64,000 bases of DNA, taken from sequence record OZ035742.1. One strand, 5' to 3'. The translations under genes and the position numbers were made by a program. A model generated the notes under the pieces. It was not told the origin of the DNA and did no database searches. It saw only the letters and a program-made list of their open reading frames with translations. This document shows, in pieces, positions 11,286-59,172 of the stretch. Position 1 is the stretch's first letter; each line of letters begins with the position of its first letter. This DNA is from Felixounavirus AN17P8.

Positions 11286-19304
<8,019 letters not shown>

Positions 19305-20522: not shown

Positions 20523-22871
20523 ATGGCAGATTATAAGTTGAGTGAATTAAACTCAATCGATACAATCCGTTCAGATGACCTTCTTCATGTCAGGGTTAAA
20601 AAGAGACCTGAAATGCTGGGTGATGAAGACCGTCGAATGACCTATCAAGATTTCTTAGCATCTTTTAAGCTTGAAAGATTTGTTCAGATTGCTGGTAGTA
20701 CTATGACTGGTGACTTAGGGATTGTTAAGTTACTTTATGGTGGTAAGGCAGTCTTTGACCCTACAGGCTCTTCTGAGATTACTATGGGGGATGTTTTAAA
20801 GACTTTTAAACTTAACGCAAATGGTCTTAAACTAACTATTGCAGATGCTTCGAGGTCAGCAACTGTTTATCACACTCTGAATAAACCAAGTCCTAATGAA
20901 CTTGGGATGAGAACTAATGAAGAGAATGATGCAAGATATGCAAAACTGGCTAACTCGAATACGTTTAAAGCCAGGCAAACTATTACATCGAATGGTGAGA
21001 TTTTAACGCTAGTCACCCCTGCGGAGGCGAGTTCAGCGTACTGTGCCCTTGTAGGTAGAGACGCGAGTAATGAAAAGAATTGGGCTATTGGGAACCTAAT
21101 TAGAGGCAGCTTTGATGTTCAAATCGAGAGTAGACAAGGTTCCATCCTCACTCTAGGTACAACTGTAACGATTAATAAGACCCTTGCTGTTGTTGGTCAG
21201 GTCAAACCTTCTGACTTCTCTAACTTAGATGCAAGATACTTTACTCAGACGGCAGCTAATCAGAGGTTTGCACAGTTAGCTGGTAATAACACATTTAGTG
21301 GTTCTAATACTTTCACTAATTTTGTTATTAAGAAGAATGCTAATGCTATTACTATTCAAAATGTAGATACAACTACGGCTTTGTATATCCAAGCAAGGAA
21401 ATCAGATGGAACTAATAAGTGGTACATTGGTAATGACGGTGATGAGAACATTGTAAACATCTATAACTATTTAGCAAAAACACAAATCTCACTAGGTAAC
21501 ACCATTACCATGAGTAAAACAGTCCAAATTGGTGGTCAAGTTCAACCTTCTGATTGGACTAACATTGACTCTAGATATATTCCGGCAGCAACATTAAGTA
21601 CGATTGCAAGAACTAATGCACAAAATACTTTTAATGGTGCGCAAACAGTTGTTAGTGATGGCGAAGGTTTAGTTATTAAAAACTCTACTCAGAATAGGCC
21701 ATTGTATATTCGTGGTAAGGACGCTGCCAATGTATCAAGATGGTGGTTAGGTGTTGGTGACCCAAATTCTACTGATGTAGCCTTAAACAACAGCTTCTCT
21801 GGCACTCAGTTAATTTTAGGTAACTCATCTGCAAGTATCAATAAGACATTAACCCTAGCAGGGCAGATTCAACCCTCAGATTTCTCTAACTTAGATGCTA
21901 GATATTTTACCCAATCAGCAGCTAATCAGAGATTTATGTATGCAGGCTCTACAGGAACAGCTAGTGAAGTAGGGGATAGCAAAGGGGTTGCTTGGAATGC
22001 TAAAACTGGTCTATATAATGTTATGAGGTCTAATGGAGGCTCAACACTACTTGTTTTTCAAATGTATCAAGGTTCAAGCTCTACTCCTTCTGCTCAATTG
22101 AGATTCGACTACCGGAATGGAGGATTTTGGTATAGGTCATCAAGGGACAGTTTTGGTTTTGAAGAGGACTTCACACAAATTTATACAGAAAAGTATAAAC
22201 CAACTCCTTCAGCTATCGGTGCATACACTAAAGCAGAAACTGACCAGAAGATTGCACAGGCAGTAAGTGACTCTACAGACCTTAACAAAATCTACCCTGT
22301 TGGTATTGTGACTTGGTTTAACAGTAACGTTAACCCTAATACCGCACTTCCTGGATTAACTTGGACGTACCTGAACAATGGTGTTGGTAGAACTATCAGG
22401 ATTGCAGCAGCGAATGGTTCAGATGTTGCTACAACTGGAGGTTCAGATTCTGTTACATTAGCAGTTGGAAACTTGCCTTCACACACTCATAGTTTCTCTG
22501 CGACAACCTCTAGCTTTGACTACGGTACTAAGACCACTAATACAACTGGTGCTCACACCCACTCAGTGAGTGGTTCTACTAACAACACCGGTGCTCATAC
22601 ACATACAGTTGGTGGTCGTTATGGTGGTGACTCTATCGGTGGTAAACAACGTGTTCAGGTATCTGGTACAGAACAGGTATCTAGCTCTGCTGGTGCTCAC
22701 GCTCACACTGTATCTGGTACTGCTGCCTCTAACGGAAACCATGCTCACACTGTTGGTATTGGTGCTCACAGTCATACAGTTAGTGGTAACACTGGTGGTA
22801 CAGGTTCTGGTTCAGCATTTAGTGTAATTAACCAGTTCTATAAGCTGATGGCTTGGGTAAGAACTGCTTAA
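20523..22871 (+). CDS. tail fibre protein (long) with His-x-His repeat C-terminal domain
   Basis: about 782 aa from ATG at 20523 (MADYKL..., preferred over the 20406 start that overlaps the upstream gene); three internal repeats around Q(V/I)(K/Q)PSD(F/W)(S/T)N(L/I)D(A/S)RY; C-terminal HxH domain homologous to 19307-20473. Confidence 0.7.
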   Translation: MADYKLSELNSIDTIRSDDLLHVRVKKRPEMLGDEDRRMTYQDFLASFKLERFVQIAGSTMTGDLGIVKLLYGGKAVFDPTGSSEITMGDVLKTFKLNANGLKLTIADASRSATVYHTLNKPSPNELGMRTNEENDARYAKLANSNTFKARQTITSNGEILTLVTPAEASSAYCALVGRDASNEKNWAIGNLIRGSFDVQIESRQGSILTLGTTVTINKTLAVVGQVKPSDFSNLDARYFTQTAANQRFAQLAGNNTFSGSNTFTNFVIKKNANAITIQNVDTTTALYIQARKSDGTNKWYIGNDGDENIVNIYNYLAKTQISLGNTITMSKTVQIGGQVQPSDWTNIDSRYIPAATLSTIARTNAQNTFNGAQTVVSDGEGLVIKNSTQNRPLYIRGKDAANVSRWWLGVGDPNSTDVALNNSFSGTQLILGNSSASINKTLTLAGQIQPSDFSNLDARYFTQSAANQRFMYAGSTGTASEVGDSKGVAWNAKTGLYNVMRSNGGSTLLVFQMYQGSSSTPSAQLRFDYRNGGFWYRSSRDSFGFEEDFTQIYTEKYKPTPSAIGAYTKAETDQKIAQAVSDSTDLNKIYPVGIVTWFNSNVNPNTALPGLTWTYLNNGVGRTIRIAAANGSDVATTGGSDSVTLAVGNLPSHTHSFSATTSSFDYGTKTTNTTGAHTHSVSGSTNNTGAHTHTVGGRYGGDSIGGKQRVQVSGTEQVSSSAGAHAHTVSGTAASNGNHAHTVGIGAHSHTVSGNTGGTGSGSAFSVINQFYKLMAWVRTA

Positions 22872-26149: not shown

Positions 26150-26479
26150 TTAGTCTGCCAACCTTAAATTGAAATTAACACCAAATTTTTCACATACTTC
26201 CAACATATACTCAAGGGAGACATTACCAGTGAGGTGGATTATGTTGGATACACGAGCCTGAGAGATACCACAAATTTTAGCAACTTGCTCTTGAGAAAGA
26301 CCTCTGGATTTAATCTCTCTCTTAAAACGATGTGCAACGAAGTCTCTCATTTCGTCTACATCCATTGGACAAATATAACTCTCCATTTCAGCCTCTCTAT
26401 CAGCCTCCCAATCATCTTGTGGAGCATAAGGGTCAAAAACTTCATTCATCTTTCTTCTTCCGTTTGCGTGAAGTGTCAA
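26150..26479 (-). CDS. putative HTH DNA-binding protein
   Basis: 109 aa; C-terminal segment LSQEQVAKICGISQARVSNIIHL resembles an XRE-type helix-turn-helix. Confidence 0.4.
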   Translation of the reverse strand: MTLHANGRRKMNEVFDPYAPQDDWEADREAEMESYICPMDVDEMRDFVAHRFKREIKSRGLSQEQVAKICGISQARVSNIIHLTGNVSLEYMLEVCEKFGVNFNLRLAD

Positions 26480-27039: not shown

Positions 27040-27259
27040 AATGACCTCAAAGTTATATTAAATTTTGTATTACATTGAGTATAAAAATAAGCTATAACAC
27101 CTGACTTGTCAACAGATTTTATAGCTTATTTGGCAGATTTTTTATAAGGCTACTGCCATCCTTCCATACCAAACCTCACCTGACCTCGCCTAACCCTACC
27201 TTACTCCACCATACAGCACCTTATTAAAACACCCTGTTTAAAGACCTTTTAAAAAGGTA

Positions 27260-27390
27260 AGTCTCATTTTAATGTAGCTGAGACTAACTACCCATACCTC
27301 ACCCTACCAGACCCTACCAGACCAGACCTTACCCTACCAGACCCTACCGAACATCACTTAAAAACCCTCTTAGAAGACTCTTAAGTGATG
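27260..27390. repeat. composite structured non-coding element, copy A
   Basis: hairpin 1 (agtctc / loop attttaatgtagct / gagact), conserved box aactacccatacctcacc, C+A-rich tract with 10-11 nt periodic ccctaccagac units, hairpin 2 (catcacttaa / 19-nt loop / ttaagtgatg). Confidence 0.7.
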
Positions 27391-27391
27391 T

Positions 27392-27535
27392 AATCGAATT
27401 TTAATGTAGCTCCGATTAACTACCCATACCTCACCTCACCCAACCATACCATGCCTTGCCAGACCGCACCTTACCTCATTAAAAGACCCTCTTAAAAGAC
27501 CTTTTAAAAAGGAGCCTCCGAAGAGGCTACCTAGT
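27392..27535. repeat. composite structured non-coding element, copy B
   Basis: hairpin 1 with altered but still pairing stem (aatcg / same loop / cgatt), identical box aactacccatacctcacc, C+A-rich tract, 3' end replaced by terminator hairpin. Confidence 0.65.
27501..27530 (-). terminator. rho-independent terminator (minus strand)
   Basis: on minus strand: hairpin agcctc-ttcg-gaggct followed by TTTTT, immediately downstream of the 27540 stop. Confidence 0.55.
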
Positions 27536-27539
27536 CAAC

Positions 27540-27980
27540 TTAGAAAGGTTTTCTACGTTGCTTGTTAATGTTAGCTTTCATAGCAGCTAAATGGTTTTGC
27601 TGTTCAATCAGTCGTGAACGTTCTTGATGACTAAGCGCCATAGTGTTCACATTCTCAATTGCTTGAGTGGCTTGCTTTAAAGCTCGACCAATCTTACCAG
27701 ACATTTTGCGTTTTGCAATAGTTGCTTGATGCTTAGGTTCAACCACACGATAACCAACACCCATTGAAGCAACCAGATAAATCTTCTCTTCTTTAAGAAG
27801 CTTTTCAATAAACTTCTCAAGTCGGTTTAGACGTGTAAGTGCATAAGCCTTCATTTCATCTTCGTACTTAACAATGTCACCTTGATAAGTTGGCTTCACA
27901 ATACCTAAGAAGGTGTCCATCTCGGAATGTGATACAGTGTCGCCGTAACTAAACTTTGCTGCTAATGCTTTTGTATTCAT
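27540..27980 (-). CDS. hypothetical protein
   Basis: 146 aa ORF; basic C-terminus. Confidence 0.4.
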   Translation of the reverse strand: MNTKALAAKFSYGDTVSHSEMDTFLGIVKPTYQGDIVKYEDEMKAYALTRLNRLEKFIEKLLKEEKIYLVASMGVGYRVVEPKHQATIAKRKMSGKIGRALKQATQAIENVNTMALSHQERSRLIEQQNHLAAMKANINKQRRKPF

Positions 27981-27982
27981 AA

Positions 27983-28588
<606 letters not shown>

Positions 28589-28646
28589 TTAGTTGATTGT
28601 TAAGTTGTTTGTAAAGAACCCTCAACAGAAGACTCTTTAGAAACTT

Positions 28647-28783
28647 GGTAGATTTTTAACGTGGCTACTACCATCCACCCATACCTCACCTAACAACACC
28701 TAACAACACAAAACTACACCCCACACCACCGCACCACACCAAACATCACTTAAAAACCTTCTTAGAAGACTCTTAAGTGATGC
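28647..28783. repeat. composite structured non-coding element, copy C
   Basis: hairpin 1 with third stem variant (ggtag / loop atttttaacgtggcta / ctacc), box cccatacctcacc, nearly G-free C+A tract, hairpin 2 almost identical to copy A (one substitution). Confidence 0.65.
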
Positions 28784-28847
28784 TGGTGAGTACCCGTTGG
28801 TTTATGCTGCTCAGTATACTCACCAAATTTTCTATGTCAACAACTTT

Positions 28848-31760: not shown

Positions 31761-34490
31761 TCAATGTACCTCATACCAGCTCTTACCAACCTTTGCTGTA
31801 CCAGTTACAAGTGTTTCTTTCCTCAAACCTAAGTTTTTTGAAGCTTGTCCATACATCCAGTCAGCAATTGCTTTCATATCATGTGTCATACCCTCTGGAC
31901 ATTCCCAACTATTTTCATCGTGATATGCCAGAAGTAACCTTGCTCCGATAGCTGGTTTTCGAGCATTCAGTTTTGTCAGGCCATCTTCACAGGCTTTTCT
32001 TGCTGCTAGGTTGATGGCCTCATTCTGAATCTGTGCTTCCGAACTCATCAGGAGGTAGTTCAGTAGTTTATGTGGAGATTTGCACCATATCCATGCTCCA
32101 GCGACCCTGATATAACCACCTTTAGCAATTGAAGAATTCTTCCCAAAAACCTCTTCCAGAGCCTTTTTAGACGCCTTAAAATCGGCTTCTAAGCTATCAA
32201 GTAACTTCTTAATCTTTGGCAGACGCATATAGTAAGTTTGTTTAGTCAATGCACCTTCTTCCGTAGATGATGCCTTGATAGTTTTTGCAAACTTCTCGTC
32301 TCCGGCTCCAAATAACAGGGCGTAGATGCCATTTTTGCTCTTCTTACGGCCTTTTGTAATCTCGTGAAGAAGTTCCTCATCCTGTGTCTCCCTACAACGA
32401 ACAATATCTTCTTCCTTGTTCAGACCAAAGTAAATACTGTTCAGTGTATGCGCATCAGTCCCTGTGTAGACTTCATAGAGGTCGTTCTCAGCATCATAAC
32501 GAAGATACTTGTCAGTTTCTGGATTAAGATACTTATCGAGATGCTTGCAATAGTATCTGCCATCCTCTTGCTTAGTGAACTCTACTGACTCTTTACCCTC
32601 AGTTACTGCTTTAGTGAAGTCTTCATCACCCATAAAGTTACAAAGGAGAACTAGCTGGGCTGAGTTCATATCAACGGAGACTACGTTGGTTCCTTCCTCG
32701 CAAATCCACACCTCCCTCATAGGCGCTCCATAGACAGCAGCACCAGATGGTACGTTTACAATACCATATTGTGTCATACGTCCAGTTGAAGTACCAAACA
32801 CCATTGCACCAGCACTAAGGCGACCATCAGGACGAATCTGGTTCAACCAACCTTTTTCATCATCTTTTGAGTTCTCAATAGTTCTGCGTCGGTGCATTAA
32901 AGTATAGTACTTAGCAATCTTCTGTCCAAGCTCACCTTCAATCGTATCATAAGATGATTCAGTAAGTTTTGGTGAAGTACGGATTAAGCAAGGCTCAAGC
33001 AAATCTGTGTATTTCTTCACAGACCAGTTATGCTCAATGTACTGTACACCTTCATGTTCAACATAACTCAAACCACATCGTTCCACCATTTCCTGCCACT
33101 TAGGATGTTTTGTAATCATCTTTTTATTGTCTTTGAAACGACAAACTTTGACAGGGCGACCGTCTGAGTCTTTCTTGTAGTTCCAGTCATCTGGAATCCA
33201 ACCAACTGATTTCAAGTAGTCTTTAACAACTGCTACCTGAGTCATACGAGAAACTTCGAACTCAATTGGTGTATATGGTGCATCAATCAAACCTGTGTAG
33301 CGACTTGACTCAAGTTCAAAGTGGTTAACAACGTGACTGTTATAGTACTTCACAGTTTTGACTGTTTTTACTGGCTTCCAGTCTTTGCATTTCTTACCAA
33401 TCTTTGCGTTCAACTCATTGCAAATTGCACGAGCATCCTTCATTGCTACAAAACCTTCCTTGTACTCTTCACCAGTTACAGTGTTGGTTGGTGTATAGCA
33501 ATTTCTCTTTTCAATGTTAAAAATCTTTGTAGTTGGCTTACCAAATGGTTTGATTTCGTATGTCTGCATCTCGCCATTACGTACCTGCTGACGATACTTT
33601 GTCTTAGGGTACTTGGTAATTCTTTTCAGTCCATCTGCATGACCAAATGTTTCAACATACTCATTCCAAGCTTTTGCAAACTCTTCTCCAGTGACTTTAC
33701 CTTTGGTCTTAATAGTTGGAGGCAGATGTGGTTCAACCTCTGAAGCAAGCTCATTAGTCAACTTGTCAAGTTCCTTTACATGGAACTCCATAAGCCCCTT
33801 ATCAGCTTTCCAACCATTGATAGCTTGTTGACTCATCCAGAAAGATGTTTCTTTAGCTCGCATGTAGGTTTCATAAGTGTCTATGCCACACTTCTTAAGC
33901 TTGAGATACTCATTATCAAGTGCCCGTTTAGTTTTGGCGTTAATACGGATATCTTCTACAACACGAGTGAAGATTTCTGCATTCCACACACCCCAATGCT
34001 CAATCTCTGGCTTACGAACACCAACACGAGCACCCCAAGCAGCCAAGCCATGAGCACCTTTATAACCCTTTGGAGTTGGTCTATCCATCCACTGAACACG
34101 AGACTGGATAAGAGAGTCCTGAAAGAAATTACTCCACGGTTTACACTTTGGATTATCAAAGTTCCATAAATCAGGTGCAATGTGATTGAAAACCCACCAG
34201 TCATAACCGAGACCATTATGGATGCAAAGACGTTTTGCCTTTAACGCAAATTCAACACCTTCACGTAAACCACCCTTGATGTACTTAGTGTACTTGTGAC
34301 CGAGGATAGGCTCATCTGTAAAGACCCATACAGGTGGCTCTTCATCGTCAGATTTATAGTCTGCGAAAGCCATTACGTGAACTTTAGTGAACTCAAGGAG
34401 TAAACCATCAGTTTCTGTATCACCAACCAAATGTAAGTTTTTAAAATCTACGTTTTCCATTTTTACTCCCTCTAAAATCATTAACCCCAT
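31761..34490 (-). CDS. DNA polymerase, family A, with 3'-5' exonuclease domain
   Basis: 909 aa; exo motif GDTETDG; family A motif A VSVDMNSAQLVLL, motif B KNGIYALLFGAG, motif C LLAYHDENSWE. Confidence 0.85.
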   Translation of the reverse strand: MGLMILEGVKMENVDFKNLHLVGDTETDGLLLEFTKVHVMAFADYKSDDEEPPVWVFTDEPILGHKYTKYIKGGLREGVEFALKAKRLCIHNGLGYDWWVFNHIAPDLWNFDNPKCKPWSNFFQDSLIQSRVQWMDRPTPKGYKGAHGLAAWGARVGVRKPEIEHWGVWNAEIFTRVVEDIRINAKTKRALDNEYLKLKKCGIDTYETYMRAKETSFWMSQQAINGWKADKGLMEFHVKELDKLTNELASEVEPHLPPTIKTKGKVTGEEFAKAWNEYVETFGHADGLKRITKYPKTKYRQQVRNGEMQTYEIKPFGKPTTKIFNIEKRNCYTPTNTVTGEEYKEGFVAMKDARAICNELNAKIGKKCKDWKPVKTVKTVKYYNSHVVNHFELESSRYTGLIDAPYTPIEFEVSRMTQVAVVKDYLKSVGWIPDDWNYKKDSDGRPVKVCRFKDNKKMITKHPKWQEMVERCGLSYVEHEGVQYIEHNWSVKKYTDLLEPCLIRTSPKLTESSYDTIEGELGQKIAKYYTLMHRRRTIENSKDDEKGWLNQIRPDGRLSAGAMVFGTSTGRMTQYGIVNVPSGAAVYGAPMREVWICEEGTNVVSVDMNSAQLVLLCNFMGDEDFTKAVTEGKESVEFTKQEDGRYYCKHLDKYLNPETDKYLRYDAENDLYEVYTGTDAHTLNSIYFGLNKEEDIVRCRETQDEELLHEITKGRKKSKNGIYALLFGAGDEKFAKTIKASSTEEGALTKQTYYMRLPKIKKLLDSLEADFKASKKALEEVFGKNSSIAKGGYIRVAGAWIWCKSPHKLLNYLLMSSEAQIQNEAINLAARKACEDGLTKLNARKPAIGARLLLAYHDENSWECPEGMTHDMKAIADWMYGQASKNLGLRKETLVTGTAKVGKSWYEVH

Positions 34491-34717
34491 ACATTACTGC
34501 AAAAAATTATAAAAAGCAAGTTGACAATGCACTTGACAAGGTGTTAATCTTTGCGAAGTGGGTTTTTACTTAAAAGGTTACTTAACAGTTTAGCTATACA
34601 GATACTTTAAAACTCTTAAAAGATTATTTAATAGCTTTTAAAAAGCTTTAAAGTATAACGTATAGAATACGTTAAGATAAAAGATTAAAACTTAATAGTT
34701 ACTTAAAAGAGGCTTAC
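34491..34717. promoter_or_regulatory. divergent AT-rich promoter/operator region
   Basis: 227 bp between divergent polymerase and early plus-strand genes; two TTGACA boxes (34521, 34533), TATAAT on minus strand (34506-34511), perfect palindromes aagcttttaaaaagctt and taacgtatagaatacgtta. Confidence 0.45.
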
Positions 34718-35140
34718 ATGCAGAAAATGTTTGTTCACCCAGACATAGCTGACTTTGTTAGAGCTTTGCAGAAGTTGGAAGAACTTGACATTGCTGCTCA
34801 ACGGGAATATGCTCACCATCACAGGAGAATGGTTGATATACAACATGAAATAGAGTTATCTGAAAACTATGAAGATGACTTAAAATGTTCTGTATTTGAG
34901 CATATGAAAGATGTTGCTACAGCGAGACGTAAAGCTAAAGACACAGTTGCTTTACTAGATTCTCTTAAAAAGAGGTTGCAAAGTGGTACAGACCTGTGTA
35001 ATCTAGCGTCACTGATTAACGATGTTGAAACTTCTTGGGATAGGCACTATTATCCACGTTCTGAAAAGACACTTGACTTTTCTTCATCCGAAAACTTAAA
35101 ATGTTCTAGAAAGAAACTTAACAAACTGAGAGAGAAATAA
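34718..35140 (+). CDS. hypothetical early protein
   Basis: 140 aa ORF, first gene after divergent promoter region. Confidence 0.35.
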   Translation: MQKMFVHPDIADFVRALQKLEELDIAAQREYAHHHRRMVDIQHEIELSENYEDDLKCSVFEHMKDVATARRKAKDTVALLDSLKKRLQSGTDLCNLASLINDVETSWDRHYYPRSEKTLDFSSSENLKCSRKKLNKLREK

Positions 35141-35141
35141 T

Positions 35142-35942
35142 ATGAATATCGATGTAGAAAAGATGCTTGAAGAAAAAGGTATTGACGAAGCATTTTTAAT
35201 CAATGCCGTAGAAAGCATGGCTATGATTCTTCGTGGGAACAACTACACAGAACAGTTTATGCCTGCAAGCTATAATCTGCCTGAAGACAAGTCTGATAAC
35301 GGTGCTTTTGCAGAACAGGTTAACATGATGTTGACAGACACTACACTTGCTCTGGCATCTATTGCGGTTGGTGTTGATGCACTTGCTGAGTTCATTTTTT
35401 ATGAAATGCAAAAGAATGACTATATCAGGATGTCAGACGAAGATAAGGAACTGTTGCTGACTAAGGACACTGATTTCATTATTGATACGCTTATCTCATC
35501 AACAAGTGCTGTTATGGCTGCTCTTGAGAAGCGTATGGAAGAGAAACTTTCACGATATGAAAAACTTGATTGGGGTGTAGAAGAACTAAACCAACGAATC
35601 AAGGAGATTATCCAGCAAACTAAAGAGTCTTTGGAAGAAGCTGTTGAAAATGACTCTGTAGCTGATATAGAACCACTTCAGGTGAAAGTTGCACTGATGA
35701 TTCCAGCTATCTCTACGATGATGAATATCGTTGCACTAATCCAACTTTCACAGATGATGGGTATGAGTATTGAGTTCATTGAGGAGATGACTGGTGGTGT
35801 TAGTATGCAAACAATCAATGATGTTTTGGTGAATATTGGTGCTTCAATCATTGAAGAGAAACTACGCATTAACTTCGGTGATGATTTTGTGAAGCAAATC
35901 TCAGCTATGGCTGAAAAAGAGTCTGCTGAGCAACTGCACTAA
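35142..35942 (+). CDS. acidic hypothetical protein
   Basis: 266 aa, strongly Asp/Glu-rich. Confidence 0.4.
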   Translation: MNIDVEKMLEEKGIDEAFLINAVESMAMILRGNNYTEQFMPASYNLPEDKSDNGAFAEQVNMMLTDTTLALASIAVGVDALAEFIFYEMQKNDYIRMSDEDKELLLTKDTDFIIDTLISSTSAVMAALEKRMEEKLSRYEKLDWGVEELNQRIKEIIQQTKESLEEAVENDSVADIEPLQVKVALMIPAISTMMNIVALIQLSQMMGMSIEFIEEMTGGVSMQTINDVLVNIGASIIEEKLRINFGDDFVKQISAMAEKESAEQLH

Positions 35943-49787: not shown

Positions 49788-49794
49788 AACTTGA

Positions 49795-49837
49795 CAAGGT
49801 GGTGTGGGTGTTGATAGGCTTACATCACCTTTTTTTA
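49795..49837 (+). terminator. putative terminator after nrdD
   Basis: inverted repeat aaggtg...cacctt followed by TTTTTTT; large loop, so weaker call. Confidence 0.35.
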
Positions 49838-49942
49838 TTGGGTGTTAGATATGGCAGAGAATATTATTGGGTTGTTCATAGGTTCTGTCTTACTAGGGTT
49901 CTTTTTAGGACTCTCTTATTGTGAATTGAGAGATAAGTTAAA

Positions 49943-59142: not shown

Positions 59143-59172
59143 TTGACAAGGGGCTTCAAAGCCCCTTAGAAT
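59143..59172 (+). promoter_or_regulatory. sigma70-like promoter (TTGACA-18-TAGAAT) with hairpin in spacer
   Basis: -35 TTGACA 59143-59148, -10 TAGAAT 59167-59172; spacer forms palindrome aaggggct-tcaa-agcccctt; about 45 nt upstream of rIIB-like gene. Confidence 0.5.

Follow-up and report, generated by a model that had tools for sequence, protein, structure and literature searches.

A conserved control region with candidate back-to-back early promoters between the DNA polymerase gene and the ORF97 operon of a Felixounavirus

The intergenic region and its conservation

The DNA studied here is a 64,000-nucleotide stretch of Felixounavirus AN17P8 (OZ035742.1), a Felix O1-like myovirus, and is referred to as the window hereafter. 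Our subject is the region in it that separates the DNA polymerase gene on the minus strand from the operon of open reading frame (ORF) 97 on the plus strand (Table 1). Felix O1 is a classic Salmonella typing and biocontrol phage, and the 2.4 kb around the locus share 97–98% identity with approximately 215 Felixounavirus genomes, including those of Felix O1, wV8, and UAB_Phi87. The counterpart in Felix O1 is the gap between ORF96, the polymerase gene, and ORF97. The neighbors on the polymerase side are the genes for a ligase and a helix-turn-helix (HTH) regulator, frd, and td; those on the ORF97 side are ORF98, the genes for a dNMP kinase, a primase/helicase, and an exonuclease, and nrdAB.

The gap is 257 bp long, not 227 bp as was initially annotated: the left boundary had been set at 34491 because the longest ORF (ATG 34490) was used, rather than the start preceded by GAGGGAG at 34460, where every annotated polymerase homologue begins. 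The gap was correctly described as AT-rich: its guanine-cytosine (GC) content is 27%, as compared with 39% in the window. Direct alignment showed that its identity to the Suspvirus and Mooglevirus counterparts is 81–85%, which is equal to that of the polymerase coding sequence (83–84%) and above those of ORF97 (68–77%) and ORF98 (54–60%); the identity of the ORF97 protein falls to 62–76% in the same two genera. The leader of the ORF97 operon thus appears to be under selection as tight as that on the polymerase coding sequence. Conservation is lowest at 34480–34519, and 13–16 of every 20 columns are invariant at 34520–34700. As for the motifs, a consensus promoter scan of 34300–34900 called 2 sites (2.0 ± 1.5 in shuffled sequences), neither of which uses the boxes picked in the initial annotation, and of the dinucleotide-shuffled versions of the gap, 29% contained a perfect palindrome with arms of at least 7 bp and 10% one with arms of at least 8 bp. 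The motifs alone are therefore not above the chance level, and the signal comes from conservation. The locus is a real conserved control region, the elements of which are partly other than those originally singled out.

Table 1 Features in and around the intergenic region (window coordinates)
Feature	Position	Strand	Remarks
Intergenic region, DNA polymerase gene (minus)/ORF97 operon (plus)	34461-34717	.	257 bp
True start codon of the polymerase gene	34460..34458	-	Direct reading and annotated homologue starts
Polymerase ribosome-binding site GAGGGAG	34472..34466	-	Direct reading
Candidate Ppol -10 TAATGT	34496..34491	-	Predicted from alignments
TATAAT of the initial annotation	34511..34506	-	Inside the candidate 17-nt Ppol spacer
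Candidate Ppol -35 TTGCTT	34519..34514	-	Invariant in Felixounavirus, Suspvirus, and Mooglevirus
P97 -35 TTGACA (first box)	34521-34526	+	6/6 consensus positions; invariant in all relatives
Second TTGACA, within the P97 spacer	34533-34538	+	Part of the twin cassette GTTGACAATGCACTTGACAAGGT (34520-34542)
P97 extended -10, TGT then TAATCT (34545-34550)	34542-34550	+	Alignments; TGG and TAGTCT in Mooglevirus
Predicted initial transcribed block TTGCGAAGTGGGTTTTTA	34551-34568	+	Invariant in alignments
Array of about 12 degenerate quasi-palindromic units	34569-34709	+	11-bp period
Palindrome 1, AGCTTTT-A-AAAAGCT	34633-34647	.	15 nt; 7-bp arms, 1-nt center
Palindrome 2, TAACGTAT-AGA-ATACGTTA	34656-34674	.	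8-bp arms, 3-nt center; conserved dyad
ORF97 ribosome-binding site AAGAGG and ATG	34707-34712; 34718-34720	+	Direct reading
Cro/CI-type HTH_3 gene	26153-26449	-	99 aa; HTH_3 E = 6e-10

Candidate promoters on the two strands

The two TTGACA boxes that were noticed at first inspection are both present on the plus strand. The first is followed, after an 18-nt spacer that includes TGT at its end, by a candidate -10 element, and we refer to this pair as P97. Its -10 matches TATAAT at 3 of 6 positions, with TA...T and the TGn conserved; hence the consensus scan does not call P97, and the TGT before TAATCT suggests that it is an extended -10 promoter. Transcription is predicted to start at about 34556–34558 (near 34557). 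The choice of the first box as the -35 is likewise a prediction, and it was examined in distant relatives, namely Yersinia phage P778, Erwinia phages phiEa104 and vEam_W_25, and Pectobacterium phage Arno162, whose DNA is unalignable here and whose ORF97 proteins are 43–50% identical. All of them carry, upstream of the ORF97 homologue, a single CTTGACA with a TAnnnT hexamer 17–18 nt on, and these hexamers sit 13–16 nt ahead of the first repeat unit of the leader: the arrangements are TTGACA-17-TAATGT in Yersinia, TTGACA-18-TACATT in Erwinia, and TTGACA-17-TAGGCT in Pectobacterium phages, as compared with TTGACA-18-TA(A/G)TCT in the Felixounavirus/Suspvirus/Mooglevirus clade. A TGn also precedes the -10 in the Yersinia (TGG TAATGT), Pectobacterium (TGC TAGGCT), and Mooglevirus (TGG TAGTCT) sequences. 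From this relative position, the first TTGACA (34521) is taken as the homologue of their -35. The comparison supports the first TTGACA as a conserved -35 element and, as far as sequence can tell, P97 is conserved across the Ounavirinae.

On the minus strand, a candidate promoter for the polymerase gene, Ppol, can be read, the -35 of which stands back to back with that of P97 on the opposite strand, 1 bp apart. Its -10 is TAAGGT, TAGTGT, or TAGGGT in relatives, with the first T, the second A, and the sixth T invariant. The spacer has a constant length of 17 nt and a free sequence; it is the least conserved part of the gap (6–10 of 20 columns invariant). The two hexamers are weak as compared with the consensus (TTGCTT, 3/6; TAATGT, 3/6), and the conservation pattern is most likely the footprint expected of a promoter. 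The start would lie near 34485, leaving a leader of approximately 25 nt. In Yersinia phage P778, a comparable back-to-back layout is readable (TTGTGT-17-TAGACT). The minus-strand TATAAT that had been proposed for this direction does exist, and it was rejected as the polymerase -10, since no -35 is found at 16–18 nt and the hexamer is unconserved (TGAAAC in Suspvirus and TGAAGA in Mooglevirus).

The second TTGACA begins 12 bp downstream of the first and is invariant. As a -35, it was rejected: the hexamers at 17 and 18 nt are AAGTGG and AGTGGG, and the same holds at the paralogue P41 described below. Of the two boxes taken as promoter elements, then, the first stands as a conserved -35 and the second lacks a -10 partner. 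The two boxes together form a twin cassette with the consensus GTTGACAA(T/A)GCACTTGACAAGGT, and this cassette is identical at 21 of 22 positions to the published Felix O1 promoter P41, which lies at the other divergent junction. Sites matching the 22-mer with at most 3 mismatches occur 3 times in the window, where 0.16 are expected, and further, looser copies are found at Felix O1 11269 and phiEa104 16494. A paralogous initial block, CGAGGGGGTTTATCT, is located downstream of the Felix O1 11269 cassette. The latter is a third cassette of the twin TTGACA kind; it reads TTGACAATACCCCTTGACATTGG-TAACTT, with CGAGGGGGTTTATCTAAAAGGG after it, lies upstream of ORF22, and is missing from the promoter list of the genome paper. 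Two further candidate promoters, at 49790 (plus strand) and 31228 (minus strand), have the 12-mer CTTGACAAGGTG of the cassette as their -35; the former (49790–49845) overlaps a stem followed by a T-run.

P41 was given as TTGACA-N15-TATAGG at 21515–21541 of Felix O1, and no homologous sequence was found in the 96–97 gap (Whichard et al. 2010; PMC3185647). Direct comparison shows a homologue of P41 in this gap, and the published statement is correctable. Two genome papers describe the start and timing of Felix O1 transcription as unknown and no promoter as findable in this gap. The likeness of P41 and P97 comprises the same twin cassette, also at a divergent junction, with ACTTAAAAGGTT and a leader built from the same units behind it. 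The two differ in that P41 would have its -10, TAGGCT, at 17 nt without a TGn, whereas P97 has TGT and TAATCT at 18 nt, and in that the P97 leader is longer and more AT-rich than the P41 leader and carries a dyad. This paralogy, which is read directly from the DNA, indicates that P97 is a member of a family of promoter cassettes with a second TTGACA. The second box may be an extra contact site for the polymerase or a regulator.

On balance, we favor the view that the gap serves unmodified host sigma-70 RNA polymerase as a compact early promoter region for both directions, joined to a constrained AT-rich leader. The host sigma-70 polymerase would start both operons early, in opposite directions, from P97 and Ppol, and the A-rich tract AAAAAATTATAAAAAG, which constitutes the Ppol spacer, may double as upstream A/T-rich DNA for P97. 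Divergent promoters between genes 96 and 97 were already assumed in the genome paper of Felix O1, in which reverse transcription PCR detected transcripts of ORFs 96, 101, and 105 within 5 min (Whichard et al. 2010; PMC3185647). These early transcripts fit an unmodified host polymerase on both arms, and they agree, as do the assumed promoters, with the initial annotation of a divergent control region serving two early operons. As in divergent sigma-70 promoters in general, the two -35s lie on opposite strands, each upstream A/T tract is in the spacer of the other promoter, and both arms are early; unlike in them, an extra invariant -35-like hexamer is present in one spacer, and no operator lies over the core promoters.

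Several points weigh against this view. A literature search found no mapped start site or transcriptome paper for Felix O1-like phages, and the BPROM promoter table of UAB_Phi87 has no entry there. The standard consensus scan calls neither P97 nor Ppol; its sole call inside the gap is a minus-strand TTTAAA-18-AATAAT at 34652..34623, which could be an alternative polymerase promoter facing P97. Finally, the invariant second TTGACA and the conservation of the full-length leader exceed the needs of a plain promoter and leader, so that part of the function is left unexplained by it.

A T4-like middle promoter dependent on MotA, in which a MotA box (TGCTTtA) would precede a -10 by 11–13 nt, was also considered and rejected: a lone look-alike, AGCTTTA-12-TAGAAT, is found at 34644, and it belongs to no recurring class. 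The six other MotA-box matches in the window are all on the minus strand and have no link to a promoter, and no MotA or AsiA is reported. Inside ORF97, a TTGACA-17-TATGCT site (34785–34813; 10/12), partly kept in the sister genera, may be an internal promoter; its conservation is confounded by its position inside a coding sequence. A scan of IMG/VR for intermediate lineages yielded known clades and one divergent Suspvirus-like contig only.

The leader array and the two palindromes

From P97, a leader of approximately 160 nt would be transcribed, with about 12 phased units and one conserved dyad; no ORF of at least 20 codons lies within it. The units are CTTAAAAG, CTTAACAG, CTATACAG, TTTAATAG, CTTTTAAAAAG, CTTTAAAG, and similar 8-mers of the CTTWAMAG type, and the last of them overlaps the ORF97 ribosome-binding site. 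Strict unit matches number 7 in 160 bp, as compared with 0.18 in the shuffled sequences (maximum 3), and this is the only such cluster in the 64 kb: elsewhere in the window, the number never exceeds 3. A position-weight scan gave 17 matches in the array, with 6 in the next-best place. The periodicity, too, was observed directly: the unit borders recur every 11.0 bp, and the observed CT peak was reached by none of the shuffles and the AG peak by 0.2%. Unit-like words occur on both strands (10 forward and 7 reverse), and no other 150 bp of the window is as AT-rich as the array. The distant relatives carry similar arrays with periods of 11–13.75 bp, and similar units are also found in the P41 leader, in a 1.6-kb non-coding convergent gap of Felix O1, and in non-coding gaps of phiEa104. 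Curvature by phased A-tracts was rejected, since AAA peaks at 7.75 bp, not at 10–11 bp, and only the CT/AG unit borders are phased at 11 bp. The CCTAAAG repeats of the T7 left end, similar in form and period, were rejected as the same motif, because the Ounavirinae unit matrix does not detect them.

The initial annotation recognized two perfect palindromes in the gap. The 19-nt TAACGTATAGAATACGTTA, palindrome 2 hereafter, is present exactly as quoted. Palindrome 1 was misquoted: the string given, aagcttttaaaaagctt, is absent from the window, where the DNA reads tAGCTTTTAAAAAGCTt. Palindrome 1 runs from the last bases of TTTAATAG through the unit CTTTTAAAAAG into the beginning of CTTTAAAG; it thus represents two abutting units of the phased array rather than a stand-alone operator. 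Among its variants, changes are confined to one arm. Sites resembling it are found at 27244 and 27499, in another repeat-rich gap.

Palindrome 2 has a different history. Its arms are TAACGTAT/ATACGTTA in Felixounavirus, TTACGTAT/ATACGTAA in a Suspvirus-like contig, and TATGTAT/ATACATA in Mooglevirus: two positions have changed on both arms with complementarity kept (A:T to T:A and C:G to T:A), and the 7 inner pairs are never broken. As these are just two evolutionary events, the evidence for selection on the dyad is modest, and to this extent palindrome 2 behaves like a selected dyad. A -10-like hexamer, TAGAAT (34663–34668), is located at its center. No further copy of palindrome 2 occurs in the 64 kb, even when 3 mismatches are allowed. 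Perfect palindromes with arms of at least 8 bp number two in the 64 kb, and the other one is at 59143–59172, where a candidate promoter, TTGACA-18-TAGAAT, has as its spacer a perfect hairpin with 9-bp arms (AAGGGGCTTCAAAGCCCCTT).

Units of the array type also recur in other settings. Felix O1 (12306–13927) and phiEa104 (16472–17900) each have a non-coding gap of 1.4–1.6 kb between convergent operons that is packed with units, and the base composition flips midway, which would make each transcript that enters the gap rich in C and poor in G; the phiEa104 gap opens with an inward-pointing twin TTGACA promoter. Such a gap may serve as a zone of Rho termination, encode a non-coding RNA, or have a part in replication. 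In the window, two long gaps of the minus-strand early operon (27040–27540 and 28586–28847) contain decamer repeats that are G-rich on the minus strand (TRF units on the plus strand, ACCCTACCAG × 4.8 and CACCTAACAA × 7.1). The decamers are embedded in longer modules that are themselves repeated, and each module has CTTTTAAG-type units and a TTGACA promoter on its flanks (minus strand, 27112 and 28840).

Other possible functions of the region

The conserved leader may be a DNA element that binds protein or melts easily, with a role in modulating early expression and possibly in starting replication. Tentatively, and as a minority view, we consider that the region may be an origin of the T7/T4 type activated by transcription, perhaps besides being a promoter. 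To our knowledge, no replication origin is defined for this subfamily, and a literature search found no replication mapping for this phage group. The mechanism would be as follows: transcription from P97 into the unstable array generates an R-loop or an open duplex, at which the T7-like primase-helicase and the polymerase start bidirectional replication. At the T4 origins oriF (uvsY) and oriG, a host-polymerase promoter is followed by a DNA unwinding element, and an R-loop serves as the primer; these origins use MotA-dependent middle promoters. The present region resembles them in that a host RNA polymerase promoter would read into an easily melted segment, and it differs from them in that the window has no class of MotA-box promoters.

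The instability of the duplex was calculated directly. No other 150-bp duplex in the 64 kb is as unstable as the array, whose free energy (dG) is -162 against a mean of -193 (standard deviation 6.4); the next least stable window reaches only -173. Thus, a promoter, P97, with a conserved strong -35 and an extended -10, stands directly upstream of an easily unwound AT-rich segment (34559–34710), and the whole lies between the operons of the polymerase and the primase-helicase/exonuclease, at the turn of the cumulative GC skew; this turn is equally explained by the switch in gene orientation. As a control, T7 was scanned with the same nearest-neighbor metric: the four least stable 100-bp windows (at 383, 5905, 18558, and 39250) comprise phiOL/A1, phi6.5, phi1.1B, and phiOR, and three of these are published primary or secondary origins. 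The primary origins of T7 are phi1.1A/B, with phiOR and phi6.5 as secondary origins, and a promoter is needed at every one of its origins (PMC8373140). The T7 primary-origin leader past the tandem phi1.1A/B is also of the CTTAAG/CTTTAAG type and is the densest such window of T7, and the literature also notes an AT-rich cluster in the T7 origin.

The likeness to the T7 primary origin therefore consists of tandem promoter elements followed by a very unstable AT-rich leader that extends to a small first gene, with replication genes on the flanks, and the stability metric picks both. Several differences stand against it. The T7 origins need promoters of T7 RNA polymerase, whereas those here would be of the host sigma-70 type; the phage is reported to encode no RNA polymerase, and the analogy is thus partial. 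Unlike the T7 tandem promoters, the second TTGACA is no complete promoter. Moreover, a similar cassette and array occur at the 40/41 junction, and the units fill the 1.6-kb gap of Felix O1, so that the anatomy is not unique. Neither DnaA nor integration host factor (IHF) sites nor a recognizable initiator was found. The resemblance to T7 is real in anatomy, and it does not by itself demonstrate the function. An iteron-type origin, as in lambda or plasmids, was rejected, because the units are 8-mers at an 11-bp period, not three or more direct repeats of about 17–22 bp, with no DnaA or IHF sites and no initiator signature in ORF97 or ORF98. ORF97 and ORF98 were likewise rejected as an initiator or a regulator: ORF97 has no Pfam domain and ORF98 no informative domain, and the AlphaFold model of ORF97 (pLDDT 71) is a helical hairpin without a PDB match at E ≤ 0.001. 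ORF98 (35142–35942) is labeled "minor tail protein" (PHROG 4251; many GenBank records); its place as the second gene of an early replication operon and its lack of a Pfam domain make this label look like propagated annotation.

Another possibility, which we consider unlikely, is that the palindromes are operators at which a phage Cro/CI-type HTH protein or a host factor effects an early-to-late switch. The HTH_3 protein is the only recognizable candidate for a phage regulator of this region, and its domain assignment was confirmed (Table 1). Its gene had been placed at 26150–26479; the start at 26479 comes from the longest ORF and probably lies too far upstream, and the most likely start is ATG 26449, which is the one annotated in finno, Moogle, Sf17, and EcSzw_1. 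Palindrome 2 speaks for this possibility: it is a dyad of a length within the approximately 14–20 bp of such sites, kept through the two double substitutions with its inner pairs intact, its 8 + 3 + 8 geometry suits an HTH dimer, and it is one of the two longest-armed perfect palindromes of the 64 kb, although an 8-bp-arm palindrome arises in a tenth of the shuffles. The HTH_3 gene was found in 258 phage records, all of Felixounavirus, Suspvirus, and Mooglevirus and none of Erwinia, Yersinia, or Pectobacterium phages; it is in these three genera, too, that the locus carries palindrome 2 and the twin cassette, and the dyad is absent from the four upstream regions read from Erwinia, Yersinia, and Pectobacterium phages. 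This co-occurrence, however, amounts to a single clade-level event.

The position of the dyad is also unfavorable to an operator. Counted from the P97 start, palindrome 2 would span about +100 to +118, and its distance upstream of Ppol would be some 170 bp; it neither overlaps nor abuts a core promoter element, and with no second site, it is not part of a set of cooperative sites. Mooglevirus retains the same recognition helix, ISQ(A/S)RVSNI, although the half-site there differs (ACGTAT to ATGTAT), and palindrome 1, with its single-arm variation, is a by-product of the unit array. In comparison with the Cro/CI operators of temperate phages, palindrome 2 shares the suitable geometry of a 19-bp dyad and a phage-encoded HTH_3 protein; it differs in being a single site without -35/-10 overlap and in that the recognition helix does not covary, and the phage itself is virulent. 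As for host factors, no DnaA, IHF, or CRP site was found in the region, and there was one weak Fis-like match. Any binding is a matter of prediction, and the operator idea survives, weakly, for palindrome 2 alone.

It is still less probable that the leader acts as RNA, the repeats and a hairpin of palindrome 2 controlling the translation, stability, or processing of the ORF97 operon. The leader would indeed be transcribed if P97 is correct, its fold as a whole has z = -2.06, and the hairpin would have two compensatory pairs; the overlap of the last unit with the ribosome-binding site points in the same direction, as do the T7 leaders, which show similar CTTTAAG contexts beside ribosome-binding sites. 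On the other hand, the covariation term of the consensus fold is just -0.09 kcal/mol, no helix apart from palindrome 2 has changes on both sides, the hairpin itself is weak (-3.5 to -5.8 kcal/mol), and unit-like words stand also on the opposite strand. A structured RNA or riboswitch was rejected on the same grounds of a weak hairpin and near-absent covariation, together with the lack of a match to Rfam families in 34300–34900 at E ≤ 1. A Rho-dependent attenuator was rejected as well: the leader, with 10% C and 14% G, does not resemble a Rho utilization (rut) site, and the pattern of C exceeding G is found only in the convergent gaps of Felix O1 and phiEa104.

Finally, it is highly improbable that the palindromes and boxes are chance products of low-complexity AT-rich spacer DNA without separate function: the chance-level motif scan and the frequent palindromes in the shuffles agree with it, but non-coding DNA as conserved as the polymerase coding sequence and more so than ORF97 and ORF98, an architecture maintained in lineages past alignment, the compensatory changes in palindrome 2, and a unit cluster unique in the window and never reached in the shuffles (at most 3 matches) all argue against it.

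The back-to-back promoters thus remain our preferred reading, and, if it holds in its plain form, the outcome is a useful annotation rather than a surprise. Concrete candidates are supplied for the start sites and the -35/-10 elements of both early replication operons, together with a recurring twin -35 cassette and a dyad that may be paired with the sole recognizable phage regulator. A T7/T4-style origin or a nucleoprotein switch, for which the invariant second TTGACA, the phased, strongly constrained, and unstable array, and the dyad leave room, is a distinctly less probable outcome. In that doubtful case, the twin -35 promoter and the array would be the origin of Felix O1-like phages, or one of a few, triggered by host RNA polymerase in the manner of T7 phi1.1A/B or T4 oriF; the dyad and the second TTGACA would be sites at which a phage protein links early shut-off to replication, and the region would provide a specific candidate origin for a T7-like replisome without a phage RNA polymerase.

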